Assembly (NCBI RefSeq): GCF_964204645.1 | Contig: NC_134026.1 | Location: 19,846,467-19,910,466 of the forward strand | DNA: 64,000 nucleotides | Source: Tubulanus polymorphus | Lineage: Eukaryota; Animalia; Nemertea | Direction: 5' to 3' | Shown: positions 21,251 through 53,864 of the stretch, one piece after another | Layout: every line of letters starts with the position of its first letter | Position numbering within the stretch: position 1 is the stretch's first letter | Notes under the pieces: generated by a model | What the model saw: the letters and a program-made list of their open reading frames with translations, nothing else | What the model was told of the DNA's origin: nothing | Database searches by the model: none | Position numbers and translations under genes: made by a program

Positions 21251-21444
21251 ATTATGAAATTATTGTCTGCCATATAGAAAGTTTATTATATTGAAAACTT
21301 ATATACTCAAGATATTTTGGAGATTTTAATTTGTAATTATGAACTTACTCTATGAACGTTATGAACATTTTATTTATGCCAATAAAGAAATTCTGATTAC
21401 TAATATGTGTTTGAAAAGTCTGAACTCTTGGCACCATTTGAACT

Positions 21445-22375: not shown

Positions 22376-22380
22376 TCGCA

Positions 22381-22845: not shown

Positions 22846-24049
22846 ATTAATTTTAAAATATCTAAGTATCTCTTCAAGCTATATTTCCTGTTTTCACAGA
22901 GGTTAAAGAGGGTTATTTGCAGTTTAAGCCTGCGTTGAATTTTTTTAAATATCTTTCCTGACGACTGATCTGTACCCGCTTGAGTTTGAGATTACGCGCG
23001 AAAGGGGTCTGCCCACTGCGCACCGCCATTTCACTGAACATTGAGATTTGTGAAAAGAAATCGCAAAAATAAGATTTTATACTGGTTTGTAATTATCAAT
23101 ATTGCTTCTGATGGTTATATATTACCTTTATTTTCGTATGGTTGAAAATGGACTTTGAGTGTTTTGATGAATTCGAGTTTTGTAGCGTTGGGAAATTAAA
23201 GGATTTCTTGTAAGAGTGGGGACTTTCTGTGTTGGTTGCAAATGTGGCCTAGTTGATAACCTAATTTGCGTTTCAACCGAATGTACCACTCATGGTTGGA
23301 CACTAGAAAAAAAATCTAAGTTTTTATATATTTTTGAATATGCGGCGCAGCTGAAAGTTGCCAAACTGGACGTTGACCCCCTAAAACAGAATATCAAATG
23401 GGGACAGATATGAACCCCTTTAAATATTATATTGGAATTTTATATCAGTAAGGTTTTCTGGTCGATGTTTTCCAGCAAGAAGGTTGAGATTCATTAAATT
23501 CATCGTATGATCGTAGAATGAGGGATTACTAGAGAGAGATATGTGTTAAATATGTCCTAAGCGTTTAAATCTACTGGCACATTTCACCATCGACTCTAAA
23601 ACGTTTGATTTCACCGAACACAAAATCGGCGCTAGGCTGGACGGGCTGTATACGACAATTCCTCAACTGGACCGTTCACACTTCAATAGCGGGACAAACC
23701 GGATCCCGAAACCAGATTAACTAATTGCCCCCGCCAAAATACGGTACAAAGAAGATATGGATTATCATCTAGGACTCGACGGACAATTTACCGCCGGTCA
23801 AAACAGGTCCATAAAAGGACACGTTCTGTACATAGTAAGTTGGAAACGAATAGAGATTTTCGTAAGTATAAGTGACTAATTAAGATAAATAAGAGGGCTG
23901 GTGTATCGTGTTTTAATGCATCTCTGCGGCAAATGCATAACGCGCGTCCTCGACAATTCTGGAAAATCTTCAGGAAAACAGGTGACAGAGACTGCATAGC
24001 GTCCCTTGACGATCTATATTCTATGAGAATTTAAATCGAAACCCGCGAA

Positions 24050-26040
24050 ACGCAACCCCAGAACATTTATATGAACTGGATGACTTTTTCGATTTAGGGG
24101 ATCACAGCCCATTGAATGCCCATTTTAGTGTAGAAGAAATAAAAAAGGCCATTAATTTGTTAAGTAACAACAAAGCCCCTGGCGTCGACGAGATATCCAA
24201 TGAGATTTTAAAGCATTCTCAGGATGAAATACTACCAATTTTGTTGGGACATTTTAATAATGTATTGGATACGGGAATGATTCCAGAAAATTGGGGGATC
24301 GGAATAATAATACCTATATATAAGGGCAAAGGTAACCGCGAAGACCCTGAAAACTACAGAGGAATAACCCTTTTGAGTTGCGTCGGAAAACTTTTTACTA
24401 ATATACTCAACCAGCGTCTGAAGCAATACCTAGAAGTGAACAACCTCCTCTTAAGGAATCAGGCCGGTTTCCGAAAGGATCACGGAATACTAGATCATAT
24501 ATTTACCTTGTAAAGCATTGTAGACTAATTGTTTTTTTGCAAATGGTAAGAAATTATATTGTATTTTTATAGATTTTCAAACATGTTTTGACACAATAAA
24601 CCGAAAGGCCTTATGGCAAAAGCTCATCCAATTAGGAATCACCGGTAAAATTCTCAAAGTGATCCATAATCTATGTGAAAATGCAAAATCCTGCATTAGA
24701 GTGAATGGAGAAATTTCTGATTACTTAGAGAGTTTTACAGGATTAAGACAGGGGGAAAACCTCTCGCCTGTGGTTTTTTCAATATTTGTAAACGACTCAG
24801 AGGAATATTTATCAAATGAAGGGTGCTCAGGGATAAACTTTTTAACAGATGATGATAATTTATGGATTAAATTATTATCGCTTCTTTATGCTGATGATAC
24901 CGTCTTATTATCGGAGAGCCTAGAAAACATTCAGCTTTTGGCTAGCAAAATGGCTGAATACTGCGAAAAGTGGCAACTGAAAAACAATTACGCCAAAACG
25001 AAGGTTATAATTTTTGAAAAAAGGAAGAGCCGTCGTCGGCCTGACATAACTATAAACAGTCACCATATTGAAGCGGTGGATCACTTTAGATATCTAGGAA
25101 TTATTTTCGACTACAATAGAAAATTCACTCTGTGTAAGAAGTCTGTATTTGAGCATGCCAACAGGGCTATATTCTTTAAACTGAACAAAGTTCAAGAACA
25201 TTCGCTTGCAATTGACATAGCTTTAAAACTTTATGACAGCATGGTTCTATCGATACTTATACATTCGGATGTGAGATTTGGGGGATGGAGAACATATCAA
25301 TTTTGGAGAAAATACAATTGAAATTTTTTAATACATTCTTGAACTGAAAAGGTCTACCCCAAATATGTTTGTATATGGCGAACTAGGCCGATATCCGTTG
25401 GAATTAACGGTCAAATATCGAATGATAAAATTGTGGGCCAAGCTTTTAAACAGCAACAAACTGTCTTCTGACATGTATCATATGCCACTAAAATCGCATG
25501 AAAATGGCAATTTGAACCCCTGGATATCCTTTGTCCGCAAACCATTAGAAACAAATGGTCTTGGGAATTTGTGGCACGACCAGACACCCCTAATCCTGAT
25601 TACGCAGCACACAGCCTTTCTTTGCGACTGAGGGACCAATACGTTCAAAACTGGGATAACCAATGTAAGATTTCTAATATTGCCGACTCGTATAGAATTT
25701 TTAATGGGGCTCTGAAAACTATTTAGCTGAATTACCTGATCATCTAAGGATATCATTTTGCAGATTCCTATGTTCCAACCATCCCCTCCCAATAGAAAAG
25801 GGAGATGTAATCGTATACCCCGAGCAGACAGGCTGTGTACTAAGTGCGATATGGGAGTTGTATGTGATGAATTTCACTTTATATTTATTTGTCCTTTTTT
25901 CAATGACCAGCGCAGGAAGTATGTCAAGCAATATTATATAAACAATCCTACATCGCATAAATTTAAAGTTATTTAGAGTTATTTTGTGCAACTGGCGTGA
26001 AATTAAAAAACCTCATTTTATATATACAGAAATGTTTTAA
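24050..26040 (+). mobile_element. 5'-truncated, frameshifted non-LTR (LINE) retrotransposon: reverse transcriptase domain plus a C-terminal Cys-rich region
   Basis: ORFs 24112..24513 and 24659..25321 encode RT motifs (KAPGVDEISNEILK, NYRGITLLSCVGKLF, FRK..., YADDTVLL), with a frameshift between them. 25758..25976 encodes CTKCDMGVVCDEFHFIFICPFF (zinc-knuckle-like ORF2 tail). Confidence 0.8.
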
Positions 26041-26753
26041 GATAAATTGTTACCTAAGTGCAGTGTTATAAATGCCAGATAATGCACTCGTTGCATATAT
26101 ATGTCCACCAATTGTATATATTGTCAATTTTCATTGTCTGTAATTTGTATAATAATGTATCTTGTAACTGGCTTTTGTAAATTTTGTGAGCAATAAATCT
26201 ATCCATCCATGATTTCGTTTTAGCTCTTTAATATACTCCAGGGTTATAAAATAATGAATAATAACATTCCCGCTATGGAACTATTCTCGTGACCAACGCC
26301 ACCACATTTGGGGAGGGCCGACGACCAACCTCGGGACCTGATTCGCCCACCAAGCCCCCAAGAATTAATGTTCTTAGTTCTGGTGAGGAAACAAGCCCGG
26401 AGCTGTCTCGGTTTCCAAACATGTAGACGTTGACACTTGACTAATCCCTTAGGATTTAGGATTTTTACAATTGTCTTGAAACCTAAATCCAAAAATTTCT
26501 TATCAATCCGAGACATAAACTGAACCAGTAACAAGCAAATAAACAGTAGATAATCATTAAGCCAATACTTGCCGTTTGTGAATTTCTAGTGAAAGAAAGC
26601 AAATAGACCTCGAAAAACTAGTAGTCAAAACATACCTGTTTATGAATTCCCAGTGAATTGATCAAAAATTGCCTATCATAACAGTAATGCTCTACAACCG
26701 CGAGATATACAAGCTCAAATAGATCAGTGCCGTACATACACCAGGAATCGAAG

Positions 26754-26781
26754 ATGAAACTATTTCAAGATCATTTTACAG
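26754..26781 (+). CDS. TCTP paralog A, exon 1: MKLFQDHFT(G)
   Basis: ATG at 26754; donor G|gtaaca. Canonical TCTP N-terminus (MIIYKDIISGDE family). The 28-nt exon is identical in length to exon 1 of copy B. Confidence 0.7.
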
Positions 26782-27179
26782 GTAACATTTATGACCATCG
26801 ATGAAACACTCCATGTTGTAACGATGATACATGTATGAAGTATTAAAAGAATGAACAAAATATTCTAGAGCAGGGGCGGATCTAGGGGGGGGGGTGGATG
26901 AGTAACCCACGCTCCTGAAATTTTAAGAACTTCCTTAAAAACTTCCGTATTATTTTTTCCATTTTTCATTTTTTTCTAATTGTGGCCTACAGAGTAAAAT
27001 GTTCTTGGTGGGTATTTAGGTTTCCGCCCGCCGAAGGATACGCCAACATAAACCCTGACCGTTAACCCTTCATCTCCCCAAATGAAGACCCTGCGTATTT
27101 GCCTCTGTAGAGCACACCGACGTAACTGGTTACTGTTGATGTTCATGGATAGAATTCAACTTCTCAATTCAACTTTTAG

Positions 27180-27358
27180 GAAAAGACGTATTTAACGATG
27201 CCTTTAAATACACGCTCGTCGACGACCTGTACTATATAGTAGAAGATGATGGACAGGAAGAATGTGATGAAAAACCGGAAGTAAGCGTTATTGCCGCCTG
27301 CAAACTAGAAGAGGCATCCACTATTGTTACGAAAAATGACTTCAAACAACATTTAAAG
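27180..27358 (+). CDS. TCTP paralog A, exon 2: (G)KDVFNDAFKYTLVDDLYYIVEDDGQEECDEKPEVSVIAACKLEEASTIVTKNDFKQHLK. It lacks the flexible-loop segment present in copy B.
   Basis: Acceptor aacttttag; donor AAG|gtatgt. Aligns with TCTP [24 protein letters not shown] ... [29 protein letters not shown]. Confidence 0.75.
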
Positions 27359-28122
27359 GTATGTATTTTCATATTCGCATGGATCGTTCTTTTCCCGGGC
27401 ACAAAACGGATGATTCTTATTAAAGCGCAGCACTGCAGTTAAATACCCTGAAAACTATGAGGCCAGATATTTTTGGATTTTAAATTTCACATGAAAGAGG
27501 GGGTTTATACGCAAAGTTACTGAAATATTTGAATTTTTTCGAAAATCATATAAAAAACTAACGAATTTCAAATCTGAATACCCTGACATTTTTGCCAGAT
27601 TAGACTAGAGATTCGCACGGTTTAAATGTTGCTAAAACCGCCAAAATCTAAGTGTGTGAAGTTAGTTTGAAAACCGTCAAAGTTCGTTTGTATTAACCGT
27701 GAAATTAGTTAGTTTGCGAAGTTAGTTTGACGATGGACGAATTGACGATCAACAAAACCGTCAAACTCAAAGGAAATAATCCGCCGCAGTATATCGAGTC
27801 CGGTATCACGTTTCTCGCGTTTGTCATAGCGAGTCGTGGGCTCGGTCCTCGATGCGATATGACCCGAAGATCCGCTATTGAAGATACGTATATCATCTAC
27901 CGCGTTCTGGCAGATCAAAATGTATAATCTATTGCCCCGGTCGTGGGGTGATACGACCTAGTAAACTTTTTCGCTCGAAATGTGCTCTAATAAAGTTATG
28001 CATTTTACCGTGTGATAGATTCGTCAAAATTAGCCATTCGTCCCTTTTGGTCAATCGTCGCTTCGTCAATCTGTTTTGACGAATTGACGATTGAAGAATA
28101 TTGACAAAACCGTCAAAATTGT

Positions 28123-28400
28123 ATGGAAGCCCTGAAACGACATTACGAATTACGAGTTACGTTTTACAAATTACATTTTACGTTTTACGAATTACGAGTT
28201 ACGTTTTACAAATTACGAGTTAGGTTAACGATTTACCATATAAGCTCCCTGCATTGCGTATGTCGCGCGAGGTCAAGGTCTTATACAATTACGTTTTACG
28301 AATTACGTTTTACGACTTACGTTCTACGAATTACGTTTTACGAATTATGTTTTACGAATTTCGTTTTACGAATTACGTTTAACGACTTACGTTTTCTATT
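28123..28400. repeat. Satellite-like tandem array of 8/16-bp units (ttacgaat tacgtttt) forming the left arm of a foldback-like structure
   Basis: Repeated ttacgaattacgttttacgaattacgagttacg. Its reverse complement recurs at 29040-29165. ORF 28123..28455 is an artefact of the repeat. Confidence 0.8.
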
Positions 28401-29039
28401 GACTTATTGGCTATTGCTTCAAAAGTTTTTCGGAAAAACACGGGCTTTGCAATGAAGTCGAATCATGACGAAGAATGAATCTGACTGAATTTATTTTGCA
28501 TTTTGAAATATATACATGTATATCCGTGAAATTGAGGGAGTTTATCGTACGCATTTTTATTACAAGTAATAATGAGACCAAGGAAGTCAAAAAGTGACAT
28601 GATAATTTCAAAATGATCAAAAGTATAGAGATTCAGCCTGCATACGCCCGGATTCATTAGATAATAAATTACAAACACTAACACTGTCCTGTTTGGCAAG
28701 GAAGGGCACGATGATTAAGACGATACAAAACTGGAAATTATTCGGGCTTCATGGAGATAAAAAGAAATTGGACTCCATATCGGTGCAGATACAATTCTTC
28801 AATTGTAACAAATGATCATAACAAGTCTTAGCTTTTAATTATGAAAATATATATTTTTATTTGAAAGAAAAGCGTTTGTCATCCATCATCGTTATTAGTT
28901 GAAGTATTCGGCAAAAAATTACAATCGATTTCACCACAGTGCTGCCTTCTGCTTGCTACCCAAAGTTTAATATTCACGACACGGAGAGTGCACCACAACC
29001 TTGACCTCTTGTGAGAAATTGAACCGAAATGTAGTGGTA

Positions 29040-29165
29040 AATCGTTGCCCAAAATAACTCGTAAGACGTAATTCGTAAAACGTAATTCGTAAAACGTAAT
29101 TCGTAAAACGTAAAACGTATTTCGTAAAACGTAATTCGTAAAACGTAAAACGTAATTCGTTATGT
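29040..29165. repeat. Right arm (reverse-complement satellite cgtaaaacgtaattcg) of the foldback-like element in the TCTP-A intron
   Basis: cgtaagacgtaattcgtaaaacgtaattcgtaaaacg is the reverse complement of the 28123-28400 array. Confidence 0.8.
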
Positions 29166-29519
29166 CGTTTCGTTCAGGGCTTCCATAAAATTGTCTCAAG
29201 AAGTCAAACTCAATATCCACATCGCACTAATAATAACCGCGGTACAATTATCGAGTCATGAATCAAGTTTCTTACCTCGGTCAGAGCCAGCCAAAATCCA
29301 TCTATGGTCCAATGAAATTTGACAAAACACGCATCACAAATAGTTTTTAAAAAAGAGAATAAATAATAATACAGGACAAAATACTGTATAGCCTAACAAA
29401 ATGGCGGCTAGCAATTGTAAAATGATTTATCATCTGGTCCCGTTTCGGCCACTCACAAATGTTTGGCTTGAATTTTCTAATCGGCATTACGAATATATTG
29501 TTAAATGTTCTTTTTGTAG

Positions 29520-29649
29520 TCGTGGTCGAAGAAATTGCTTGCTAGAATCAAGGAAACCGATGCGGAAAGAGCTGAATTTTTAAAGAAACATTTACCAGAT
29601 TTTACTGAGAAACTTGTTGATGATTATGACGCATTAAGCTTCTATGCCA
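29520..29649 (+). CDS. TCTP paralog A, exon 3: SWSKKLLARIKETDAERAEFLKKHLPDFTEKLVDDYDALSFYA
   Basis: Acceptor ttctttttgtag; donor A|gtcagt. The 130-nt exon has the same length and phase as exon 4 of copy B. Aligns with TCTP [41 protein letters not shown]. Confidence 0.75.
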
Positions 29650-29729
29650 GTCAGTAAAAAACACCGTCGACATTTCTGTCGCAATTTCATTTAACCAATA
29701 CTCTATGTTTTGTCATTTCAATCTTACAG

Positions 29730-29851
29730 CTGAGGACGATGAATACGATTTGGAAGGTGGTATCTATTTGCTCAGATATCGCGACCCAGTCAATGAAAAA
29801 GAGCCATATCTGACTGTTTTGAAAGATGCCGGTTCTTTCGTTCAGATATAA
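29730..29851 (+). CDS. TCTP paralog A, terminal exon: (T)EDDEYDLEGGIYLLRYRDPVNEKEPYLTVLKDAGSFVQI*
   Basis: Acceptor atcttacag; stop TAA at 29849-51. The 122-nt exon matches copy B. Aligns with the TCTP C-terminus [28 protein letters not shown]. Confidence 0.75.
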
Positions 29852-30905: not shown

Positions 30906-31338
30906 ACTACTGTATACTCTTTACCAATAAGAAGAGGGCTCCAGGAAAAAATCTCAACCTCAGAATGCATCTTGTATACATTTTCTGTTTTACTCCGATG
31001 AGGGGCTTCGTTCTTCGGGCGCTCGCGCAAGCACACACCTAACTTTGGAACGTTTATCGTGTTAAAATGCCAACCCTTTCAGTGGCATAGTCACTAGGAG
31101 TGACGATGAAATCCGATAGATCCTGGCAGTCACCTGCCAGGTGACACGTTACTTACTAACCTACTTACTTTCACTAGATGACAACCAGTCGAATCTGGCT
31201 GCTCAAACTTAATGTCTTACAGTCGTTTAAATGCTCTAGTACTGATAAAAAGTGCTGGCTATGTTTTTTATTAGCAAACTAGGTCATGTAAACAAATACG
31301 TGACCTAAATTTGACATAAGGAATGAAAAGATAGATAT

Positions 31339-31500
31339 GTGCATGTCGGATACGAATTCGTGTTGCTCGGATTGAAAATGATCGTCGCTCACGTGGTGGA
31401 AGTCGATTTACGAAGATCTCCCGATAGGAATTACATGAAAAAGTTACGAGTCGCACCAGATCCTCCGCTCGAATTGTACATTTTAGCTGCTTTTAGAATG
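31339..31500 (+). pseudogene. Pseudogenised fragment of the CYP4 terminal exon (heme-loop to C-terminus), about 11 kb downstream of the intact gene
   Basis: MHVGYEFVLLGLKMIVAHVVEVDLRRSPDRNYMKKLRVAPDPPLELYILAA versus intact MCIGYKFALLEMKMIVARALRSFRFTKIPGSNYTKKIRVTMRPDPPLELYIKAV. Indel, heme Cys lost (MHVGY), and no acceptor context. Confidence 0.7.
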
Positions 31501-32142
31501 AATTTTGAGAGTTTTGATTTTTAGATGATTATTAATCAATAGATGCGTGTTAACGAGATGAGCCCCATTTTCAAATGGGTATAGGTCTTGCGCGTGACGT
31601 CATAGTTTGTTTGCTGGCCATTTCGAGGGTCTGTCATGTAAATCACATGTATATACATGTATATATGTTTATTCGACCCATGTGGCGTAGTCACTTTGAA
31701 AAAGCACAGGGCTGCAAGACCTTTGTAATATCTATTTCGACGAACGTTTTTGTGAACGTTTTCCAAGGAGAATACAAGGAGAATTTTTTCATCTGGAAAA
31801 AATTGGTTATGATTTGTTTCTGGCAAAACATTTTGTGCATGAATTTAAAGTCAAGGCATGGGAGTTATTTTTTTTATAATCATTTCTCAACTGTTCACAC
31901 TCTTGCACTGGGATTGACCCGTTCCTGTTCAAACCATGTGTTCAATTCACTTCAATTCAATTTCAATATTTTTCATAAGAAAGCATGTTATAAGAAAGAA
32001 ACAGGACCCAGTTCGACAGTCGTAAGTTAGAGTTAACTCTGAGTTTAAGTTAGTTCATTTTCAATGTTTTAACCCAGAGTCAAATCTTAACTCGGAACTG
32101 TGGACATGGGCCCAGAACAAAAATAAAATTGAGAAGGCTTTC

Positions 32143-32470
32143 TTATGAGGGCCTAGCCACGGCCAAAAGGCTGCTATAGCAAGCACCGCTCGTTCGGTGT
32201 AGGCTCCATGTTGTCCTATTACAGCAACGGACAGCCACGTTCTCTATCACTTTGGGAAATGTTTTTGGCGATATGTTCTGCATCTCCCTGCGGATATTGT
32301 TCTTCAGTTGGTCAAGTGTTCGAGGCTTCGGGCTCCCATAGATTCTCTCTTTCAGATGACCCCACTGGAAGAAGTCTGTGGGCGCAATGTCGTGTGGATA
32401 ACCGGGCCACTCCACATCCTCATAGAGATTACTCGATCTGGAAAATGTTCACGGAGAAAATGTATTGATT
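32143..32470 (-). mobile_element. Mariner-like (Tc1/mariner superfamily) transposase C-terminal relic
   Basis: Minus ORF ...WPGYPHDIAPTDFFQWGHLKERIYGSPKPRTLDQLKNNIRREMQNISPKTFPKVIENVAVRCCNRTTW matches the mariner PYSPDLAPSDYHLF...L....I...W consensus. Upstream parts are degraded. Confidence 0.65.
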
Positions 32471-32635
32471 CTCCGGTTATGCGAGGTGGAGCCATATCCT
32501 GATACGAATAATGTTATTTCTCCTTCGGGCCTGAGTACGCTGACAGAAATAGATTCTCGTATCACATTCGGTTGTTTACTTGGTTGATGGTAACTATGTG
32601 TCCTTGGTCATCCTCACAGAAATGCGGGCTAGCCA

Positions 32636-32966
32636 CATTAGCCGCGATCACACGAGCATTTTTGGCCCGTACCAAATTTAGCTCGGAAAACTGTTCACAC
32701 GGGTGCCAAATGGGCCCGAGCCTGTTTGGCCCGACAAAAATTGTTGGACAAGGCCAAGCAAAATTTTAGCACCAGACAAATGATTGCGTTTGAATAGCAA
32801 CTGGCACCGGAAATGATCCACTTCGCTTTGTTTGAGCATTTTTTAGTATCGAGTGAATGGTTTACGTGTGAACGCGCTCTCTAATTAGGCACGGGCCAAA
32901 GTTGGCCCGAGCCTGATCCGTGCCAATTTGGCCCGGGCCAGATCGTCACCGTGTGATCGCGGCTAT
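32636..32966. repeat. Palindromic element of about 330 bp with TIRs tagccgcgatcacacg / cgtgtgatcgcggcta, adjacent to the mariner relic
   Basis: 32638-32655 agccgcgatcacacgag is the reverse complement of 32950-32966 ccgtgtgatcgcggct. Internal ggcccg-rich subrepeats (tttggcccg, ttggcccgagcctg). Confidence 0.6.
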
Positions 32967-33339
32967 TGTCGCAGTTAAAAAATCATTATAGAAACAAAAT
33001 CTCGCATGCAGGGTTCCACGGTTGCGGTCCTTATTTGTCCTTCTTTTGGAAGAAGTTTGGACAAACTTCATCTTTGTGCTTTATGTGCTTTATGCACATA
33101 TTGTTTTGTCAGTCAAAGCATTTTTGGGACACCCTGTATATGGATTAATTGATTTTATTCGAAAACATTAGAGCGATAGCCTGTGATCTAACATAAGATC
33201 CGTTTAGTTGAACTGTTTTATCAATTTGATAAAATGTGAAGAGATCTGATGCATTTTTTTTTATAAAACCTGTGAAATATCGTAAAAATGCGAAAAATTC
33301 AAGAAAACTGTAAAAAAATGTTTTGATAGCTTCTTATGC

Positions 33340-33600
33340 CAAACACGACGGAGCTCAGAATTTATTTCAGCTCAGAAATTCTATCTTAATCTTATTAGAT
33401 CGGGATGAGTAAACGCTCATATTATTGTATCTTTCAAAAAAAGTAAATTATGGTGAAAATTCAAGTGTTAATCAATTTAACCTCTGAGACAGTAATGAAC
33501 TTGATCTATATTTCATTTCATTTCATTATACTGTACCGTACAAGCATTATATAATCTATTTACATTTATATTCAGGATAACAAACTTTATATTGAGCCCG
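33340..33600. repeat. Second copy of the interspersed repeat seen at 20930-21250
   Basis: gaaaattcaagtgttaatcaatttaacc...aatgaacttgatctat...caagcattatataatctatttacattt...ttcaggataacaa. Confidence 0.6.
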
Positions 33601-34649
33601 CTTATGGATAATTTATACGCCCAGTCGAACCGGAACTTTATAATACATGTACAATTTTGCGAATATTGATTATGAAATTACCTGTTGTGATACGCGTGCA
33701 TGTATGTATTTATAAAACTTGTATGTTGTATTTTGGAGATATGATTTTAGAAAAAATAAAATTGTTCTTAAAATGATGGAGATATTTTTGAATTTAGAAA
33801 AGTCTGAAATCTTAACACCATTCGAACGTAATTATGGAAGGAACGCGGAGATGGTGGAGGCTGTGCCATTATTCAGCAGAAATTGTCAAATTACGATTCA
33901 ATAGAAATGCTACCAGAGACTTTTGAAGCATCGACAAAATCGGACATTATCAAGCCAAAATGGGGCAAGGAATATATATGTTCACTACTATAGATCGAAG
34001 AAAATACGATTGCGGTGATCCAGGGAAGTGTGATGAGATCTCATCACACTTCCCTGGCTGATCTACCATTAGTTACCGAGTGACACTGGGCGATGATATA
34101 TGATATGTTGAATTATATCATATATCATATTATTCAGCCCCTCTCAACCCCTGAAATGAACGACATAACAATATTGCGACCTAGACAACGATGATTACCA
34201 CCCGTTTACTTTAGCACTGAAAATATGAATGATAAAAGGATTATAACACAGCCGGTTTTGAGCCGATTAATTTCTGCAATGCTTTTATACGACCCAGAGC
34301 AGCGTCATTGGGGGGACGCAATCAACCATAATGGATTCCCATTGAAATTATGTGACTACGTACAAACCCGCTCTCCCGTCCGACTTCTTATAATCTTAGG
34401 GATTATATTCTTACGAGACTATAGCAGAAATGTATCTACAGTGTCAAAGTGGTATTTGCTAATATAGAAAATTGTTTCTCTTCGCTCCCCTCATCCAAAA
34501 TAGGTGACGCCGCCTCAACGGCCGTGCACTTTTTAATAAGACCAAGGCTATAAAACCTGTATGAACAGATTACATACGTTTGTATAAAGCCTGTGTGATT
34601 TGGACGAGACACAACTATACAATTCGAAAGGACACCAACGGACTTGAAA

Positions 34650-34677
34650 ATGAAAGTATTTCAAGATCATTTTACAG
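34650..34677 (+). CDS. TPT1: TCTP (TPT1) paralog B, exon 1: MKVFQDHFT(G)
   Basis: ATG at 34650; donor G|gtaatt. Near-identical to exon 1 of copy A, including the downstream intron start. Confidence 0.75.
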
Positions 34678-35511
34678 GTAATTTTCATAACCATTGATGA
34701 AATTCTCTGTTCGTGTTGTGACGATCTGAGAAAATCTAAGAAAGATGAAAGAGTATTTCTGAAGATAGCTATTAAGATATAGGCCTGGTCGAAACGCTTA
34801 TCACGACTTGTACAAGTCTGGCATATTTTTTTACGTGCCCTATATTCATTTTGCCAACAAAGATAATTGGTGCATTTTAGTGGGAGTGCGCCTAATATTG
34901 CTTTTTTGGACATCATGTGACAAGTCCTTCAAAATTGGCATTTGGGTCAGCCCCTGAAATCATAAACTCAAGGAGACTTTACTTCTTTCTTAATGTGGAA
35001 TATATTATATGTAAAGATAATTTGCATATTTGGATTGAATTAAAACAACAAGATAATCCTGTTACTTAAAGATGCCGGCCTTGAAGATTTGAGCATCGAT
35101 TTCGAAAGATTCACTATTTGGTAATCTTTTTTCATCCGTTTTGGTATGTACTTGATTTGAGGCCAAATGTTAATCCCAAATATGCGAGTTGTGAAATTGC
35201 TCCTTTTGGTATATTTTCAATAATTTTCTGCGTGAGTTCTCCTATAGGAACCGACATGTGTACCTAACAAAAAGTTCCACTGTAAATAGAAGAACTGTAA
35301 GTTAAGCTCCACGCGGGTCTCTCTGGCTTTTATGACTTATTCATTAATTCGATAATATGGAAGAACATACAAGCTACTAATTTCGGTATAACAGCCAATC
35401 AAATTGGTCCCTGGAGGTAAAGCCAGAGTACGCGGTCTGAGCCTGGTCAATCAGCAGATTAAGTCAGTGAAATATAAGGAATTGTTCACGGTTAGCAGTC
35501 ACCTTTTTCAG

Positions 35512-35582
35512 GAGAAGACGTATTTAGCGATGCATATAAATACACGCTCGTTGATGACCTGTACTATACAGTAGATGGAAAG
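35512..35582 (+). CDS. TPT1: TCTP paralog B, exon 2: (G)EDVFSDAYKYTLVDDLYYTVDGK
   Basis: Acceptor cacctttttcag; donor AAG|gtgagt. Aligns with TCTP [24 protein letters not shown]. Confidence 0.8.
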
Positions 35583-35736
35583 GTGAGTTTAGAAATCTAA
35601 AAAACAAAATTCATCCAAGTTCAAAATCTAAACACTTTAATGGAGAACCGGCTGAACTACTGCCACTCGCGACCGGTGGTATGCCGGTTCCCCATTGACA
35701 CGACGAAAATTTACAAGGATTGTTCGTGTTTTTCAG

Positions 35737-35910
35737 TGGGTATCGTCGAAAACTGCAGTAAGCGAATCACTGATTGGTGGTAATAGGTCTGCAGAAAATG
35801 ATGAACAAGAGAAGGCTGATGTAGAATGGGAAGTAGACTTTATTGGTAGTAGCACTTTAAGAGAGATAACCACTGTTGCTTCCGTTACAGACTTCAAACA
35901 ACAATGGAGC
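35737..35910 (+). CDS. TPT1: TCTP paralog B, exon 3: WVSSKTAVSESLIGGNRSAENDEQEKADVEWEVDFIGSSTLREITTVASVTDFKQQWS
   Basis: Acceptor gtgtttttcag; donor AGC|gtatgt. Contains the TCTP flexible-loop motif SLIGGNxSAE (human DDSLIGGNASAEGPEGEG). Confidence 0.75.
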
Positions 35911-36310
35911 GTATGTATTTCAATGTTTGCAACTTGGCTGATTCGAGCTATCGGTGGGCGTCGTTGCGGGCCGTCTTCGGGCGGTGCTTTCGGGGTTACG
36001 AGCCCCTGTCGAGCGGCGCTGAAAAGACTTCGAACCCAGAAGCCGAAACGCGAAATTATTCGCAGACGACTTAGATCTCGGTCGTGTCGCACTCGGCAGA
36101 GCAGCTACCACACTGCGAACCGTTATGTCCTTTGACCGATGGATTTGTCCCGGGGGCGGCCCGTCCAGGGAGAATGTCTGGGGTAATAGGTCGTTCATTT
36201 CCGAGGCAGAAAGATTGCCATTATCTGGTCCCGAATCAGCCACTCAAATGTTTGGTCTCTATTTTCTAATCGGCAGCGAATATAGTGCTAAATTTCCTTG
36301 AATATTGTAG

Positions 36311-36440
36311 ACGTTCTCGAAGAAACTGCTTGCGAGAATCAAGGAAACCGATGCGCACAGGGTTGAACATTTCAAGAATGGTTTAAACGATTTAACTAAA
36401 AACCTTATTGCTGATTTCGACGCATCAAAATTCTATGCCA
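36311..36440 (+). CDS. TPT1: TCTP paralog B, exon 4: TFSKKLLARIKETDAHRVEHFKNGLNDLTKNLIADFDASKFYA
   Basis: Acceptor aatattgtag; donor A|gttagt. Paralogous to 29520-29649. Confidence 0.8.
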
Positions 36441-36519
36441 GTTAGTAAAAACGCTGTCTATATTACAGTCGCATTTTCATTCAACCAATGCTCTATGTTT
36501 CGTCATTTTAATCTTGCAG

Positions 36520-36641
36520 CTAAAGATGATGAATTCGATTTGGAAGGCGGTATTTATGTGCTCAGATTTCTCGACCTCGTCAATAAAGAACAGCCATATT
36601 TGACTGTGTTGAAAGCGGCGGGTTCTTTTGTGACGTTTTGA
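36520..36641 (+). CDS. TPT1: TCTP paralog B, terminal exon: (T)KDDEFDLEGGIYVLRFLDLVNKEQPYLTVLKAAGSFVTF*
   Basis: Acceptor atcttgcag; stop TGA at 36639-41. Paralogous to 29730-29851. Confidence 0.8.
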
Positions 36642-37814
36642 GTTTTGGTTGCCGTCTATAGCAACTTGTTGTTTTGTGTAGAACTGTATTCGTCAGTCGT
36701 GTTTGTAAAGTAATTAGCCATGGCCTCACTGTCTTCGGCATGTTGTTGCTCAAATTCTCTGCTCACTGTCTGTCAGCTTTGTTTTTCATACCAAGGTTTT
36801 TTTTGTTATTATGCGGGAATTTAAATAAGGTATAGTCGATATAGAATGGGACACACTTGTTTCGGTCGGAAGCCGGGAAAGGGATTTTATCTAAATTGAT
36901 CGTTGACGACTGTGGATTTATTTGCCGAGCTAGTTCCCAAGCTCAGTGAAAATTCTAATTACTTTACCACCACGCAAATCTAATCCAAGCAAGCCTCAGA
37001 ATGACGACGCATTATGATGTATAATCCGATAATAAAGTCTGTTGTAGAGACATGATGATAATAATGTTAACGATAGTAATGGCAGATGCTTTTAAGCTTT
37101 CGCTCGCTTTTCGATGGACGCATGCTCAAAGCCCGGTTAATGCGTATGGAAAAAGCTGATTGCTTCATGTGTCCAAAAGAAAATATGAAATGCGGAACAG
37201 ATTATAACACCGCCGGTTTCTAGCCGATTAACTTCCACAATGCTTACGACCCAGGGTGGTGTCAGTGGAGGGGCCGTACCAACCGTTATAGATTCCAATT
37301 TCACTGTACTCCACACTTAATGTTTTTCATTATTCATGCCATCAAGTTGATGTAAATATTGTTATAAAGTTGATGAAATAAACTTCTATGAAAAGCCACT
37401 TTATAGAAATCAGTCGATATCGAATGTACGTAAGATATGAATCGTGCATATTTTACTTTCTTAAACCCTTTTTTCTCAAGGGGCCTGAACGTCGTAGTGA
37501 TTGTACAGCCTAAGGCTCTGCTGAGGTCGCTATCATCAATCGTCGTAAAAGCAACCGGACAACAATCGAAAATTTGGCACAAAAGTTTTGTGCCAAATTT
37601 TCGATACTTGAAGGTGTCTTTCCGATACTTGAAGGTGTCCTGAGTTCACATAAGTATGTTCGGTGCCAAGCTCTAAAAACATTCATTTTCCTGTTCACTC
37701 GAGTGAATTGCAGACCATCACGTTTATTGTTGGGGCGCTAATTTCACATAAAATTGGAGAATTCGTTCGCATTAGAACATCAATTTATAACGTATACATG
37801 TACTTAATTTTAGC

Positions 37815-38108
37815 AAAAGGTTAGGGTCCAGTTATATTGGCCGGGGTGCCAACCGGCGACTATTCACAGGCGCGAACCCACTACTGCTCGACGCGGGATC
37901 TTTCCACCCTGGGCCGATTCGATCCTCCTTAGACAACCTGGTCAGCCTAGGCTCCCCGTGCTGGCCATATTGACGCCGAGCTTAGCGCGGACGCCCGGTC
38001 GAACGACATAGACCGACGACTGACAGTAATGTTATCCCGGCTTCAAGCTGTCCACCAAACCAAGCCTCCAAGTCGCTGGATTACAGGAGTGCGCCACGAC
38101 TCGCAGCT
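37815..38108 (-). ncRNA. RN7SL: 7SL RNA (signal recognition particle RNA) gene, about 290 nt
   Basis: Plus strand reads ...ctattcacaggcgcgaacccactactg...cctgggccgattcgatcctccttagacaacctggtcag...ccatattgacgccgagcttagcgcggacgcccggtcg...gcctccaagtcgctggattacaggagtgcgccacgactcgcagc. This is collinear with reverse-complemented human 7SL over both the Alu and S domains. Minus-strand TTTT terminator at about 37814-37820. TAAATA lies about 30 bp upstream of the minus-strand 5' end. Confidence 0.8.
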
Positions 38109-41100
38109 AGTAATAGTGCGCTCGTTTGTGGTATTTACCAGACAAACACCAGATGACACCGATTTACATTGTTACTGGCGCCTTTTAAATCAAATCAGTT
38201 CATTAGATAAAGGGCATAGGGCCAGTACGCATACATATACACACATACGTAACTGGGCTCTTTTTCACATTCTTGCTCCTTCACCCGAATTCAAAGTTCC
38301 CTTTTCCCATGGCCCGCTGAAAACTCACTTTCGCACTCAATATCCCCACTCGACATTCTATGAAACCGGAATTCGCCAAGTACCACGGGACGAATAACTT
38401 AGAGTATACATTAGTTATAAAATCAGAATAGCTGTTCGTGAACATATTCATATTTTTATCTATATAATAGAAGCAGGTATTTCAAAAGCCCCCTATTGAA
38501 ATGTTGGTAACCGCGTTCGAATGCTAGTTTGTGGGAAAAAAGGGCGAATTGAAGACTTGGTAGGTGTAATCAGCGCAGCGTAGAATTCATTAAAAGCATT
38601 AGCGTCACAATCGTTTCTATGTGAATGAACCATCATAGCTATAGCCTGCAATCCGCAACTGACCGATGTCACATTGTTCATGGACGCCCATCATTGTAGG
38701 GAAATTCTAGACAACGGATAGCGTTTTGCTGAAACTTGTGAAACTGCATTTGAATTGAAAGTTCCATCAAAGCATTTTATGCGATGAAATTTATTAGAAT
38801 GAAACCAAAAGAAGGTTTTCTCTTACATCCCTGTAGGCCTACAGTATGTTTGTACTAAACATTGAAACCCCTCCCACAACAGAGGTAAGCATTAATTGAT
38901 TGAATACCCCCTTGGTGTAGATAACACAGAAACTTAGGATTTCCTGGTTACTGCCCTGTGTATTTCTATGTGGTTGAATAATAAACAGATGCTGTGACCT
39001 GTACGGAAGAGCAATGCGGCCAACAGCATTTTATTTTCAGTTCAAAAAGTCGACTTTTCGAAATAGTAATTCGACTTTTCGACTTAATAAGTCGACTCTA
39101 ACCACACTGTCATTGTAAACATGGCGGATGTTTATTTGACCGGGCACTTTCCGAACTAAACAGGGCACATTTTTACAATAGGCGGATGTATAATCATTGT
39201 GTGCAAAAAGGGCAATTTGCTGCAAACATTAACATGTTTTTCCTTGCAAAAGAAACTCAAATGCTTGAATATTGCATCTGCAGGGCTTTTTAATTTTCCT
39301 TCGGAGCTCGCCACTCGTGGATAGTTCTTCTTTACAATAATTAGTGCCCTTCTTACCCCTCCCTCCTATTATATCCATATATGCCCTGGATGCGCCCCTG
39401 CGTATCGATCCTTCTATATGAATGAACTACGTTTCTTTTTTTTCTATTTGTTTTTATGTTTTTTTATAAACAATACTATCATCAGGAGAATATAGTTGAA
39501 TCAAACTTAAACTAAGTCAACGACGGCTCAATAATGTATGGAAATTCTCCTAATGATGTGCACGGCGGCAGCACCTTTCGGTGTGAGAATGGTATTTCCA
39601 TTCCACATTGGAACCTATGCATATTTTGCAACCACGGTCGAGATGCCATGCTTTACGATAATGCTGCGTTTAAAGGTGATTGGTTTCTGTATTTGTTCAT
39701 CAGGGGCGTTTAATATTGAATGTGTCCCTGGACCCCTCGTTGTTAGTTCGATGGTCATTCGGGACCACGGTCGGACAGTCGTCAAGGACTGGGGTTGCAG
39801 TTGGGACCGGTCCCTTCCGGTTTGAAATAAGGCGACAAACAATGAATTGAAACAGAACTGTTATAATCAGTTTTACTCGCTTTGCGCTACAGGCATTTAT
39901 TTCATAGATAACAGAAAATATAAGCAGCATTTCAAATAAAATACATTTCAATTGATTGAAAATTATTGATTTATTATATGAAATTAAATAAATGAATCCA
40001 TCAAGAAATCCTAATTCTAATCGATTAATCTAATCAGCCAATCAGCAGTGTTCATTTTCAACACGAGTTGATTTGAAATCGATCGCGTCCAATTAAGAAA
40101 ATAATCATTTTGAAAAAAACATTCGTTGAAAATGCTACGATTAGAGAAGATAAGATATATTACACCCTAACCACACTAAGTGGGACATAGGGGATTACAG
40201 TATTTATAACAGAAAGAAAAGAAAATTAGCATTATCACATAGAATGCTATTATCATAATATATTGCACATCAGTTTTGTCAAATTTGTATACCTTTTTCC
40301 AATGATGAATCACATAGTTCTGAAAGAGACTACTACAAAAAAATTACAACTTAGTTTTGAACGTTGCTTTCACAAATTCAGCAATTTTCGTCAGGAGATT
40401 TAAATTTTCAGATCTCATCATCGCGATTAATCTTTCCAAAGGTGAGCAGCATAGAATAGAGTTGAATATCAAATTCAAAAAATAGTATCAAGTTTTGGAC
40501 ACATGATGAAAACCATCGTCAACAGTTTTGAGATGAAATCTCATACATAACCTCAAACGCCTCTCCTCATTTGAAAAATAATAACTAATCATAAGTCGAA
40601 AATTCCAAATGGTAAACAATGCCGCTTTTCATCTCTGAGTGAATCTATGTACATTTCTTTTCCGTGACTATTTTAGATACATAATATAAGGAGAATTGCT
40701 GTTTAGATTGAACATAATGTTAACCATTTATTTCTCTGATTATTTTCTATGGCAGTACGTATATTATTTTTTTCACAGATTTCCCGTTTTGTAAGTCCCA
40801 GATTCCATTCCCAATGCCGTACAAATTTTCTTTTACGTGCGAAATGTTTTACACAATGCCCTCTTTATTCTACGGTAGTCACCTAAGCGTAATCACGAGA
40901 GAGGTGAACCAGGTTTACAACAGTTCTAGCCTAACAAAGCAACTTAAAGTCCAATCTCTAATTTTACTTAAACCACCTAACACCGGAAACAACCATAACG
41001 AGTATCACCATATTCATCCTGTAGATGGTAGCACTGTTACAATAGTCGTAATCAAATTTCAAATTTCATAATCAGATGTGCAGCAATACACTAGGGCCGA

Positions 41101-47262: not shown

Positions 47263-49487
47263 ATTGGGTAGGTCGCCGTAAATACTTTTTTTACAGGAAC
47301 AAATTCTTAGTCAGGAATAAAATATATATATATGAATTAAAAATTTATTATATCTATAATTTTATGATGTGGATCTCAGTGCCGACATATGACGATTTGA
47401 TTTAAAAGAAACAAATATTTACGAGAATGGAGAGTTTGATAGTTAGGGTAAGATTGCAAAATCTGATAGTACAAGTAAAATTGAAATTCAAAGACAAATG
47501 TACATACCATCATTTCGCTTTTCCGACGGAATTGGATATTCTTGGTAGATATTATTGAGCTAAATCTGATATCATTTAATTTGAATTTTTGGCGCATTTC
47601 AAAAGACTTTCCAGTGACGGTTCCAGAAGCGTACTTGTACTCCAGCAGAAAGAAATGAAAAGGGCATGTAGTAAAAAGTGCAAGTATCCGGACACAGCGC
47701 CAAAACATGGGTCAGGAAAATCTATGAATTCCAGTGTATTTTCATACAACTTCTGGACACTTGAGTGACATATAGAATAGCTAAATCTTGCGCTGCGGAC
47801 TGCTGTTCTATTATTCGTGGGTGGAAAATTGCCCGGAAAAAATGATGCCATCGTATTTTCAAAAAGGGACGGAAGATTTGCGATAGCAGCACGCGCCCTT
47901 AACGCTCCCGCCCCTGCTTTGACAGACACAACACGCTCCTGGCAGAAAGGTGATTACTTCAGCAGATTTAAAACCACATAATTAACGGTTAGATTACTTG
48001 CATCATACGGCGCAGTATACGGTACGCGCAAGACTCGAACATCGGTCAGTAATAGTTCTGACAGAAGGGGCAAATATTTATCCAGTTATTGTAGCTGAAA
48101 GTTTATTTAAGGTACGCAGAGTGAGCTAATTGCCCTATTGGTCTCGTTATTGACAAATCGCTAGATCTTGGCGAAGAAATAATTTCCGTCTAGTGAGATT
48201 AGAACCGAGCACGGATCGACGACGAATATACGCACGAGGGTGGATACTTTCAGAAAGTGAGTTACGGGGATTGATTCGGGGACTTCGCGCCTGAATCGAG
48301 GGGAATATGAAACAAGATTACGATACAGAAGCATGATGGTAAGTCATTGATTTATTATTTCTTCATTTAAATACCTTTAGTCTGATCACCAGACGATGTT
48401 ATGGATCGAACAACAGTTAGATACATAAGATGCCCATGCCTTGCCTACTTAGTAGTTAATAACCCATTCAGTATGGATCAGGGGGGTGATAAACCTCAGC
48501 TTATCAATTCAAAAGCGCGAAAGAAACTCTTCCAATTTAAGTGTCTCATTGTCACAATTCATATTTAGAAATAGTCCACGCATTCCCTATAGGTAAATGT
48601 TGGCCTTTGAGTTCGCGCAATTATCATCATATTGCGATCCATTGCCCACAAGTGCAGCATTGTTTTCAAGCGTTCAGGTTGTCTACGAACTGTACCATTG
48701 ACTTTTTCATCCATGGTTGAATCAAATATAGAACACTGCGTGCTACTGGATTTTCACTTCGATGTAAATAGGTATTCTTAAGCCAAATTAATAAATCAAT
48801 TCATTAAATGAACACTCAATATCTTGATGCAATCTATTTACAGCCTGCACCAATACCGACATTTTTTTGCCCTTCCAAAATTTGATCACAGGACTTCACA
48901 CATTTTGTTCATAATAATTGAAAATTGACTTAGCAATGGACTACAAATGCAGAACATTCAACAAACTTGACAACTTGAATGATCTTTTCTAACTCGCTTT
49001 TCCAGGTTTCAAAAGACGAAATAGGCGCTTTTTTCAACCGGTTTAAGGTCTAGAGGGTGTAGGGATAGGGATTTTACTCTCTACTTCCAATAAGCAATTT
49101 GCCTAACATGAACATATGAATGGTGCGACAGAAAACGATGATGATGAAATTGAAATTATGAAATAATGCATGGAAAACGTAATTGCAAATTTTCAATATT
49201 GTCTATGTAGACATAGAAGTGACCTTAATGGATGTGACAAGTTGTTAAAAATCAACAACAAAGATAATTGGTGTATTTCAAAGCAGGAGTGCACCTTTTT
49301 GGAAATGAAAGAACCCTAAACAGATATAAGTTCTTCAAAATTAGCCCCTCAGTGCAGGAGTACGCCTAATATTGCCTTTTTCGGATATTGAGGTGCCTTT
49401 TTAGGCTTTGACAGGTCCTTCAAAATTAGCCCCCGGATCCGCCAACCTGTAATCAAAGTGTATCTCGTTATGTTTTTACATTTGCAG

Positions 49488-50510
49488 GATGCGTACAAGG
49501 CCATGAAAATATTCGTCATATCATGCTACATATTTTTCGGCGTCGCCGGAAATCTATTGATCATAATCGCCGTCGCTCGCAAGAAAAAACTACAAGTAAC
49601 AACAAGCGTTTTCATCGTCAACGTCGCCATTTCCGACATGGTAGTCGCCGCCGTCGTGATGCCGACGATTCTGGTAAATCTGCTCACCGACGGACGCATG
49701 GTCGGCTACGACGAATGCGTGTTTTTCGCGTTCGTCCTGCTCACGTCGTGCGGCGTATCGTTGATCAGTCTTTCGTTGATCGCGTTCAACCGTTACGTCA
49801 ACGTCTGCCATCACGCGTACTACAAACGCGTGTTCGAAAACCGTTTCGTCGTCGTAATGGTCGCCGCCGTTTGGAGTTTTTCGTTCTCGATAGTCGCCAT
49901 CGGTAGTTTCACGCCGCTCGCGAAATTCAGCTACGACCCGCGGCTGTACACGTGCACGTACATCAACCGAGAATCGCGCGTGTACACGTTATTGCTGATG
50001 ACGGTCGGCATCGTTTTACCCTGCGTGCTGACGTCGTTCGGCTACATCAAAATCTTCCGGAAAATCCGCGACTCTCAGAACAACATGATGGCGCACGCGT
50101 CCGCGACGCATAACAATAAGGAAAAGAAAGCCATATTCGCGATGTTTTCGGCGTTCGCGGCGTTCGCTATTTGTTGGTTTCCGTACGGTACGATTGCGAT
50201 CGTCGACGCGTTCACGAAAGGAATCTCCGACGAGGCTCATTTGATCGTCGCGTGGCTCGCGTTCGGCAACTGTTCGTTGAACTGGCTCATCTACGGCGGG
50301 TTGAACTCGAATTTTCGACAAGGATACAAGAAAATCTTCGTTACCTGCCGCAGTCGCAACAAAAGAGCGATCGCCGATTCGACGACGACACAGACGAACG
50401 GGAATCTACATCGAGCGAAACGGGATACTCGGACCTCCGTCGTAAATCTACCGCAGAGACAGATGATCAGCGCTAGTTCAACTGTTCCCACTTTATCGGA
50501 AACATCATAA
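49488..50510 (+). CDS. Melatonin-receptor-like rhodopsin-family GPCR. Main coding exon; first in-exon Met at 49503; TGA stop at 50508-50510.
   Basis: Seven hydrophobic spans. TM1 GNLLIIIAV; TM3 NRY (not DRY), as NRYVNVCHHAYY versus MTNR1A NRYCYICHSLKY; ECL2 YDPRLYTCTY versus YDPRIYSCTF; TM7 NWLIYGGLNSNFRQGYKKIF versus NAIIYGLLNQNFRKEYRRII. An acceptor ttacatttgcag at 49476-87 suggests a short upstream exon. Confidence 0.85.
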   Translation, partial: DAYKAMKIFVISCYIFFGVAGNLLIIIAVARKKKLQVTTSVFIVNVAISDMVVAAVVMPTILVNLLTDGRMVGYDECVFFAFVLLTSCGVSLISLSLIAFNRYVNVCHHAYYKRVFENRFVVVMVAAVWSFSFSIVAIGSFTPLAKFSYDPRLYTCTYINRESRVYTLLLMTVGIVLPCVLTSFGYIKIFRKIRDSQNNMMAHASATHNNKEKKAIFAMFSAFAAFAICWFPYGTIAIVDAFTKGISDEAHLIVAWLAFGNCSLNWLIYGGLNSNFRQGYKKIFVTCRSRNKRAIADSTTTQTNGNLHRAKRDTRTSVVNLPQRQMISASSTVPTLSETS

Positions 50511-52272: not shown

Positions 52273-53141
52273 TCAAAAGCTAAACAAATCATCCACATTT
52301 TCATTGTCGCGTTTTCTAGATTTTTTCGGAGGAGGTTTGCGTTTTTCGTCGATCCGCCGAAGACCGGCATCGTCATCGTTATCGCCGACGGAGAATAAAT
52401 CGTCCAGTAAATCGGCGCACGTGTTCTCTGTAACGGCGCTACACGACGAGCGTTCGGTGATTTGAACATCGGCGGCGCTGGCGGGCGCCGGATTTCGTGG
52501 AGGTTTTTTAAACGTTCGGCGATTCGGTCGCGCCGGAGTAAAATCGAGAAAACTGTCTAAAAACAGCGAATTTTCGTCAGTCATGTGAATTCCGGTAGCT
52601 GATTCCGATACAGCTGCGCTGCTAACGTTACGCGGCAATAACGCCGGTTTATCGAAAACCGCACTTTTTGAACGTTCATCCGCATGTACCATGACCAAAG
52701 AATCATTCCCTTCAATTTTTTCTCTACGCGAGCTCGATTTTCCGATACCTTTCTTGAACGTCGTAGTTCGCAAATTTTCATCGCATCCGTTCCGCACTTT
52801 CGATTCATCCAAATGACCGCGATTTGAATCGGGTATCGCTGTCCTTTCACCGCAACTATTATCCGAGATATAGTCATCCGCCGACGAATGGTTCAGACCG
52901 ATCCGCCGGCAATTTCTATCCCTATCTCCGGGAAAAATTTGATAATCGTCTTTTCGATTGGGTGACACCCGAGACGGACCGGGTCCTGCATCTAAATCTA
53001 GATCTGCATCCGATCGGCCGCGTCCGAACACGTCTTCATCGTCACTAGAAATTACATATTCGACGCCTTTCCTAGATTTGCGAGTCTTCAACGGAGCTTT
53101 GCGACGCACACGAGGACACGTCAGTTGCTTTTTGTTATTTA
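52273..53141 (-). CDS. ERCC6L2: ERCC6L2-like SNF2 helicase, terminal exon of the long isoform. Acidic, Ser-rich tail ending ...[47 protein letters not shown]
   Basis: Minus acceptor ctatttcag (AG at + 53142-43); stop at 52273-75. Human ERCC6L2 C-terminus has LLGDTSILDDLFKSHG. In phase with the exon at 53865-54085. The N-terminal YIYIYI portion of ORF 52273..53400 is the intronic (TA)n and was excluded. Confidence 0.75.
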
Positions 53142-53169
53142 CTGAAATAGAATGCATGTAACACGGAGT

Positions 53170-53260
<91 letters not shown>

Positions 53261-53262
53261 GT
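53170..53262. repeat. (TA)n microsatellite, about 45 units
   Basis: atatatatat... run in an ERCC6L2 intron. Confidence 0.95.
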
Positions 53263-53864
53263 ATATATATATGTATTATATAAATGTATTATATAAATGT
53301 ATATATATATGTATTCGTATTCAAGTTCATTAACCCCATAAAGGTTTTGAGCATATTCCAAACATTTTGTCCTCATTCTATCATTTTGTTTAGATATCAC
53401 TGCTCTTCATTCAGAACAACATAGCAGCTCGGGGTCAAGGCAGAATGCTCATGATTGAAAATTATGAATTAATTGAAACCCTGGGATAAAACAATTGGAG
53501 AGTGTACCAATGTTTGAGAGTATTAAACTGATCTCATTCCTTGTTGATATTTACACATAAAATACTGAACATTTGAGTATCTTAAGTATCGACATTAGAC
53601 AAGGAATGTGATGTATTTGAAATACTGAAATCATAACCATAAGATGATTTATCCTTATGAAAACTACATTGCACTGTTCAGCATATCAAATAATCTTTTT
53701 TTATGAAGGCAAAAAATTGATACCTTGTTTCTCATTTCTGATGAGCTTTAAAGTTGACCCAGCCAGTCGCTTATTTTCCCTGTACATTACTTTGATTTAC
53801 AAAACGACCCGGCTGATTAGGCATCAAGGCATCATTTCTTTTAGCCTTAGTGTAAAACCAGTAC

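Follow-up and report, generated by a model that had tools for sequence, protein, structure and literature searches.

A 7SL RNA homologue in a 64-kb stretch of DNA of Tubulanus polymorphus (the whole of this stretch is called the window) is probably a defective, DNA-duplicated 7SL paralogue, either a pseudogene or a solitary 'orphon', and not a supplier of working SRP RNA. This reading was preferred because three kinds of damage coincide in the copy: a deletion in helix 8, a base change at the position of human A240 and a set of broken base pairs. By homology the locus is a member of the 7SL family, and its sequence lacks two features that define a working SRP RNA, the symmetric loop of helix 8 with its tetraloop and the conserved A of 5e. 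In the proposed course of events, a 7SL gene of T. polymorphus would have been copied at the DNA level, and the copy would have kept its signals of the pol III type, namely the TATA-like box at -30 and the T4 run. Disabling lesions would then have accumulated: a 14-nt deletion that took the apical half from helix 8, with the binding site of the SRP54 M domain, an A-to-U exchange at the SRP72-critical position of 5e, and broken pairs in the helices 3, 5 and 6. Working 7SL genes are presumably located elsewhere in the Tubulanus genome, possibly in arrays. The coordinates of the features are collected in Table 1.

Table 1 Features of the Tubulanus 7SL copy and of its neighbourhood, in positions of the window
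Feature	Position	Strand	Remarks
7SL/SRP RNA homologue	37815..38107	-	292-293 nt, end to end versus Metazoa_SRP
Alu-domain 5' part, helices 2-4 and UGUAAU turn	38060..38107	-	from the cmscan alignment
Helix 6 with GGAG tetraloop	37940..37966	-	loop at about 37953..37950
Helix 8 stub	37896..37925	-	30-31 nt instead of 45; deletion junction between 37908 and 37907
A240 equivalent, 5e loop	37876..37876	-	U here; A in human and in L001-L005
TATA-like TAAATA, candidate pol III upstream element	38132..38137	-	-30..-25 relative to base 1 of the model
T4 run, minimal pol III terminator	37815..37818	-	T5-T6 at the same place in the relatives
TCTP-B gene, 5 exons	34632..36641	+	convergent with the 7SL copy
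Chance ORF, 122 aa	38029..38397	+	antisense; covers 79 nt at the 7SL 5' end and the upstream flank

Homology and extent of the RNA gene

A search of the whole 64 kb with Rfam (cmscan) yielded a single match above the gathering score; the family was RF00017 (Metazoa_SRP), and the match runs on the minus strand from 38107 to 37816; no other Rfam match reached this level. The score of 176.5 bits (E-value 2.1e-46) was far above the gathering score of 70, and the match spanned the positions 1-299 of the 299 in the model and was not cut off. The covariance model had been named in the sequence-only reading as the check on its minus-strand 7SL RNA, and this part of the reading was confirmed. CCTGTAATCCAGCGACTTGGAGGC was located at 38087..38064 and GTCCGCGCTAAGCTCGGCGTCAATATGG at 37992..37965, both on the minus strand. 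The description of a GC-rich locus amid an AT-rich region also agreed with the composition: the GC content is 58.7 % in the 7SL copy, 39-41 % in the 2-kb flanks and 37.8 % in the whole window. Global alignment gave an identity of about 72 % to human 7SL, for which a sequence of 298 nt versus the expected 299 was used; its A240-U241-C242 and G243/C244 context matches the literature (PMC2995471, PMC5224484).

The gene had been described as full-length with both domains. Its two ends and the greater part of the S domain are indeed present, while helix 8 is short of 14 nt. Thus a truncated structure, named beforehand as an argument against a 7SL gene, was observed in part: the copy is shortened by an internal deletion, unlike the truncation of the SINE type. 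Outside the lesions the sequence is well preserved. S-domain blocks of 28/28 and 25/31 nt are nearly identical to the relatives and to human 7SL, and CpG dinucleotides are not depleted (observed/expected 1.04). The well-conserved S domain and this CpG ratio count against the pseudogene reading, as they suggest a copy that is young or under some remaining constraint.

The comparators were fetched by scanning a metagenome collection for a 25-nt motif of the S domain in its Tubulanus form. Five JGI metagenome contigs (L001-L005) with 7SL genes of an invertebrate other than a nemertean were obtained, and RF00017 matched on all five. Helix 8 is intact in the three complete copies and in a fourth that lacks the last 6 nt, and their scores are 241-258 bits; the Tubulanus copy scores 65-82 bits below intact invertebrate 7SL genes and is 76-78 % identical to the metagenomic ones. 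Like these it has the identical 25-nt motif, a TATA-like element some 30 bp upstream and a T-run terminator. The metagenomic genes differ from it by a helix 8 of 45 nt, by an A at 5e and by the upstream boxes TGACGTCA (or TGACATCA) and GGGCGGGG.

Loss of the apical half of helix 8

The loss in helix 8 was seen in three independent ways. The cmscan alignment has only 2 nt at the apex of the helix in place of 14 consensus positions, and two more positions of the 3' strand are deleted. The global alignment to human 7SL places human GGCCCAGGTCGGAAACGGAGCAGGTCAAAACTCCC against GGCCCAGGGTGGAAA--GA------------TCCC of the Tubulanus copy. An alignment with the five invertebrate 7SL genes (MAFFT) presents one clean gap of 14 nt in the Tubulanus copy opposite CCCGCGAGGGAGCA, where the relatives read CCAGG[CCCGCGAGGGAGCA]GCC. 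Three elements fall within this gap: a distal stem of 3 bp, the GNRA tetraloop and, from the symmetric loop, the 3' strand AGCA. When the segment was folded by itself, helix 8 of the relatives formed over 45 nt a basal stem, an asymmetric loop, a stem, the symmetric loop, a further stem and the tetraloop; the Tubulanus segment 37925..37896 folds into a 31-nt stub with a triloop. A symmetric loop was absent from every suboptimal fold of the Tubulanus helix 8, and the string AGCA does not occur in the segment.

These losses affect the binding site of the SRP54 M domain, a symmetric loop with the invariant A-C pair, AGCA and a GNRA/GNAR tetraloop, which is not formed by the Tubulanus copy. Helix 8, conserved across all domains of life, presents the binding surface for SRP54; even in those known SRP RNAs that deviate most, the A-C pair of the symmetric loop is kept (PMC4605306). 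In the Tubulanus copy this pair cannot form, as the strand supplying the C is deleted. Since the missing element is universally conserved, we infer that the SRP function of the RNA is lost.

Further lesions and retained elements

A second lesion affects helix 5: in its 3' strand, a U at 37876 replaces the A of the conserved GAU. The surrounding sequence reads GGGUUCGCG in the Tubulanus copy, GGGAUCGCG in human and GGGAUAGCG in the five relatives. The human counterpart, A240, opens the 5e loop, which consists of the three nucleotides A240-U241-C242; this A is described as a highly conserved base and the key one for the binding of SRP72 (PMC2995471, PMC5224484). The conserved 5e A expected in a functional SRP RNA is thus absent from the copy. 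Together with the A240 equivalent, 5 of the 60 strongly conserved consensus positions, those in upper case, are violated.

Several helices are weakened. Helix 3 contains two C·C mismatches, at 38103/38086 and 38098/38091; the corresponding pairs of the relatives are G-C and G-U. In helix 6 the pairs 37959/37947 and 37958/37948 near the loop are broken; both are intact in the relatives. Five pairs of helix 5 are broken in the Tubulanus copy and intact in the relatives. A count of pairs on the MAFFT alignment gave nine that are broken in the Tubulanus copy only, the two C·C of helix 3 included; this count is noisy in the indel-rich helix 5 and was used for individual pairs only. For this reason the totals were taken from the cmscan flags, which mark 16 negatively scoring non-canonical pairs in the Tubulanus copy versus 8-10 in the relatives.

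Other modules are retained. The Alu domain has the GUGGCG loop, CUGUAAUCC and helix 4, along with the weakened helix 3, and the GGAG (GNAR) tetraloop of helix 6, the site of SRP19, is present. The lesions are scattered over several protein-binding modules, and in sequence this looks like decay rather than a targeted remodelling.

Transcription signals

The T-run and the TATA-like element about 30 bp upstream, both pointed out from the sequence beforehand, were found as TTTT at 37818..37815 and as TAAATA at -30..-25. The position of TAAATA matches the TATA-like boxes of the five relatives, which read TTATAAG or TTATG(A/T)AAG at about -32..-24. The upstream boxes of the relatives, a CRE and a GC box, were not found in the flank of the Tubulanus copy; this absence says little, since the relatives come from a different species. 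A literature search on the promoters of invertebrate 7SL genes gave nothing useful. Other pol III genes (tRNA, U6 etc.), from which an upstream element typical of the species could be derived, were not found in the 64-kb window. With the TATA-like box and the terminator intact, the Tubulanus copy may still be transcribed.

A transcribed copy could serve a role independent of SRP54; it might, for example, bind SRP9/14 and SRP19 and act as a decoy or in regulation, in loose analogy to the Alu, BC200 and 4.5S-type RNAs. Such a 7SL-derived RNA would account for the pol III-type signals, for the intact U-turn and loops of the Alu domain and GGAG loop of helix 6, and for the high conservation beyond the lesions. 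We consider it doubtful: only a single locus was observed, with neither a second copy nor a remnant in the window, and the damage extends across helix 3, helix 6, 5e and helix 8, a decay-like pattern and not the loss of one module.

Comparison with known SRP RNAs

With metazoan 7SL (RF00017; human RN7SL1/2) the Tubulanus copy shares, in the same order, the helices 2-4 with the UGUAAU turn, the long helix 5, the GGAG loop of helix 6, 5e/5f and the T-run. It differs by the 14 nt missing from helix 8, by the U at A240 and by the extra mismatches in the helices 3, 5 and 6. An alteration within helix 8, which is conserved more strongly than any other part of SRP RNA, is also known from the non-canonical SRP RNAs of Basidiomycota. 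Those RNAs, however, were purified from the SRP or occur phylum-wide, they keep the A-C pair, and matching changes are present in Srp54 (PMC4605306); the Tubulanus copy is known from one locus, and in it the A-C pair cannot form. A literature search on the Tubulanus genome or on Tubulanus 7SL returned nothing relevant.

The Basidiomycota variants are a precedent for regarding the locus as a working SRP RNA gene, in which the deletion would be an assembly or sequencing artefact or the reduced helix 8 would be tolerated by a co-evolved SRP54. The end-to-end Rfam match well over the gathering score, the TATA-like box at -30 with the T-run, and the strongly conserved sequence of the helices 5 and 6 would fit a working gene. 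It is nevertheless improbable. All of the real but non-canonical helix 8 variants retain the A-C pair of the symmetric loop (PMC4605306), while the C-bearing 3' strand is absent here and no alternative fold restores the pair. The second lesion at A240, the added mismatches in helix 3 and helix 6, and the distance of 65-82 bits to the intact invertebrate genes also stand against it. As to an artefact, the gap is a clean one of 14 nt in non-repetitive sequence, and deletions of this type are atypical of consensus errors in assemblies.

That the helix-8-less RNA is the SRP RNA actually used by Tubulanus, or by palaeonemerteans generally, has to be seen as very unlikely. If it were true, an animal SRP would work without the universally conserved symmetric loop that binds SRP54. 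As a defective paralogue of a housekeeping RNA gene the locus is biologically ordinary, a known kind of object, and it would matter more only as the sole or the expressed 7SL of T. polymorphus. The locus matters mainly for annotation: a covariance hit over the whole model and well above the threshold can still be a dead gene. Rfam-based pipelines would label the locus "signal recognition particle RNA" despite the missing universal element.

Origin of the copy

The sequence-only reading had named target site duplications and an A-rich tail as marks of a retropseudogene, and neither was detected. No direct repeat of at least 6 nt is common to the 60 nt upstream and the 80 nt downstream, and the T-run is followed by TGCTAAAATTAAGTACATG, not by an A-rich tail. 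Nor is the S domain lost or the 3' end truncated, as in SINEs and retropseudogenes; both ends are present. The absence of an A-tail and of target site duplications, together with a near-complete S domain, argues for an origin of the copy at the DNA level, with its own upstream flank. The Alu, B1, BC200 and 4.5S-type elements share sequence similarity in the Alu domain with the Tubulanus copy; they lack the entire S domain and carry A-rich tails and target site duplications, in all of which the Tubulanus copy is the opposite.

Within the 64 kb, neither Rfam at its gathering score nor blastn with a word size of 7 nt detected a second 7SL copy or fragment, and a permissive E-value threshold gave none over 33-41 kb. 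A search of a protein database with the concatenated stop-free translations of 7SL had no hit at E<=10, a search in which short matches could not reach significance. One of the contigs differs in this respect from the Tubulanus copy, which is solitary in the window: L005 carries a 7SL match at each of its ends, with about 5.8 kb between the two, and closely spaced 7SL copies are thus present in at least one invertebrate.

A SINE derived from 7SL or a processed retropseudogene, to which the Alu-like 5' sequence and the internally truncated structure could point, is highly improbable, for the S domain is complete except for 14 nt, A-rich tail and direct repeats of at least 6 nt are both absent, the upstream TATA-like box is placed as in bona fide genes, and other copies or fragments are absent within 64 kb. 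The DNA-duplicated paralogue that we favour would belong with the DNA-duplicated 7SL pseudogenes and the 'orphon' copies of multicopy small-RNA genes. Such non-processed copies are, like the Tubulanus copy, single and dispersed, with gene-like flanks, an internal deletion and lesions at functional sites.

Genomic neighbourhood

The 7SL copy had been placed next to a gene named TCTP-B, and this assignment held. Between the stop codon of TCTP-B (about 36641) and the 7SL 3' end lie some 1.2 kb. Its translation, joined by hand from the exons, matched the Pfam family PF00838 with 56.9 bits versus a cutoff of 24.3 over the profile positions 4-161 of 164, and the protein (P0012) is named 'translationally-controlled tumor protein homolog [Tubulanus polymorphus]' by NCBI; it is a true gene of the TCTP family. 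The Alu-like appearance had been judged not to be a primate contamination, and rightly so: a primate origin of the sequence was ruled out, because the flanking genes match T. polymorphus, which makes the window chromosomal DNA of a nemertean, and because the identity of the RNA to human 7SL is no higher than about 72 %.

A second TCTP gene, TCTP-A, is located at about 27.2-29.8 kb. The two TCTP genes, together with the last exon of a cytochrome P450, are part of a tandem segmental duplication (19.8-29.84 kb versus 31.3-36.63 kb). The duplication stops at the TCTP stop codon, so that the 7SL copy lies outside, just past the second unit; a 7SL counterpart was not found after the first unit.

The overlapping ORF 38029..38397 had been regarded as an artefact. 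This view is supported by the translation, in which no Pfam family was detected at or above threshold, and by a similar antisense ORF that covers the 7SL gene on the metagenome contig L001. The antisense ORFs are a by-product of a GC-rich RNA gene. Farther along the window, at 49458..50510, the intronless ORF of a GPCR matches with 100 % identity an NCBI entry on a 31.9-Mb contig, melatonin receptor type 1A-like [Tubulanus polymorphus].

Flanking sequences of the 7SL copy and its metagenomic relatives

The TATA-like box of the probably defective 7SL copy sits, by eye, within an imperfect inverted repeat, GTTTGTCTGGTAAATACCACAAAC, whose tabulated segment lies just upstream of the box. On the downstream side a near-perfect palindrome of 41 nt, ATCGAAAATTTGGCACAAAAGTTTTGTGCCAAATTTTCGAT, was found with 40 of its 41 positions paired, the odd one being the centre base, and it is directly followed by two tandem copies of ~20 nt (ACTTGAAGGTGTC...). 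This palindrome is a candidate for a transposon end or a protein-binding site. The upstream flanks of the invertebrate 7SL genes on four JGI metagenome contigs (L001-L004) have in common TGACGTCA (or TGACATCA) and GGGCGGGG, together with a TATA-like box at ~-30, a layout resembling that of the vertebrate 7SL promoter. The spacing of the two copies on a further contig, L005, points to a tandem array.

Features of the window and of contig L005
Feature	Position	Strand	Remark
Tandem segmental duplication units	19846-29841 and 31336-36631	+	collinear blastn blocks
P450 exon of second unit	31345-31488		
Two adjoining reverse-transcriptase-like ORFs	24112-25321	+	by eye
126-bp repeat	37180-37300 and 34219-34343		75% identity between copies
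GC-rich block, ~300 nt	35930-36250	+	inside TCTP-B intron 3
Palindrome and tandem copies	37565-37645		~210 nt downstream of 7SL terminator
Imperfect inverted repeat	38141-38165	-	by eye only
Intronless class-A GPCR	49458-50510	+	100% identity to NCBI protein
Long microsatellite (TA-rich codon)	~53150-53330	-	reads IYIYIY...
Two 7SL copies	1-139 and 5800-6045 (L005)		~5.8 kb apart

Duplication of the TCTP genes and further features

The TCTP-family genes TCTP-A and TCTP-B belong to a tandem duplication, with 70-87% identity across the collinear blocks. Each unit includes the last exon of a cytochrome P450 and a TCTP-like gene of five exons. The P450 exon of the second unit is shortened and diverged, and therefore probably a relic. 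Between the P450 exon and TCTP-A, the adjoining ORFs look like a putative fragment of a non-LTR retrotransposon. The 126-bp repeat, present downstream of TCTP-B and upstream of its exon 1, is probably a dispersed repeat.

The block in intron 3 of TCTP-B, with a GC content of up to 56% and open frames on both strands, had no counterpart in the equivalent intron of TCTP-A; only the last ~80 nt are common to both introns. A comparison to Rfam revealed no match at E<=1 and the folding z-score was -0.68, thus the block presented no sign of a structured RNA.

The protein identical to the GPCR is annotated as 'melatonin receptor type 1A-like [Tubulanus polymorphus]', and the next-nearest homologues share only ~34% identity. 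The microsatellite falls within a mechanical ORF (52273..53400).
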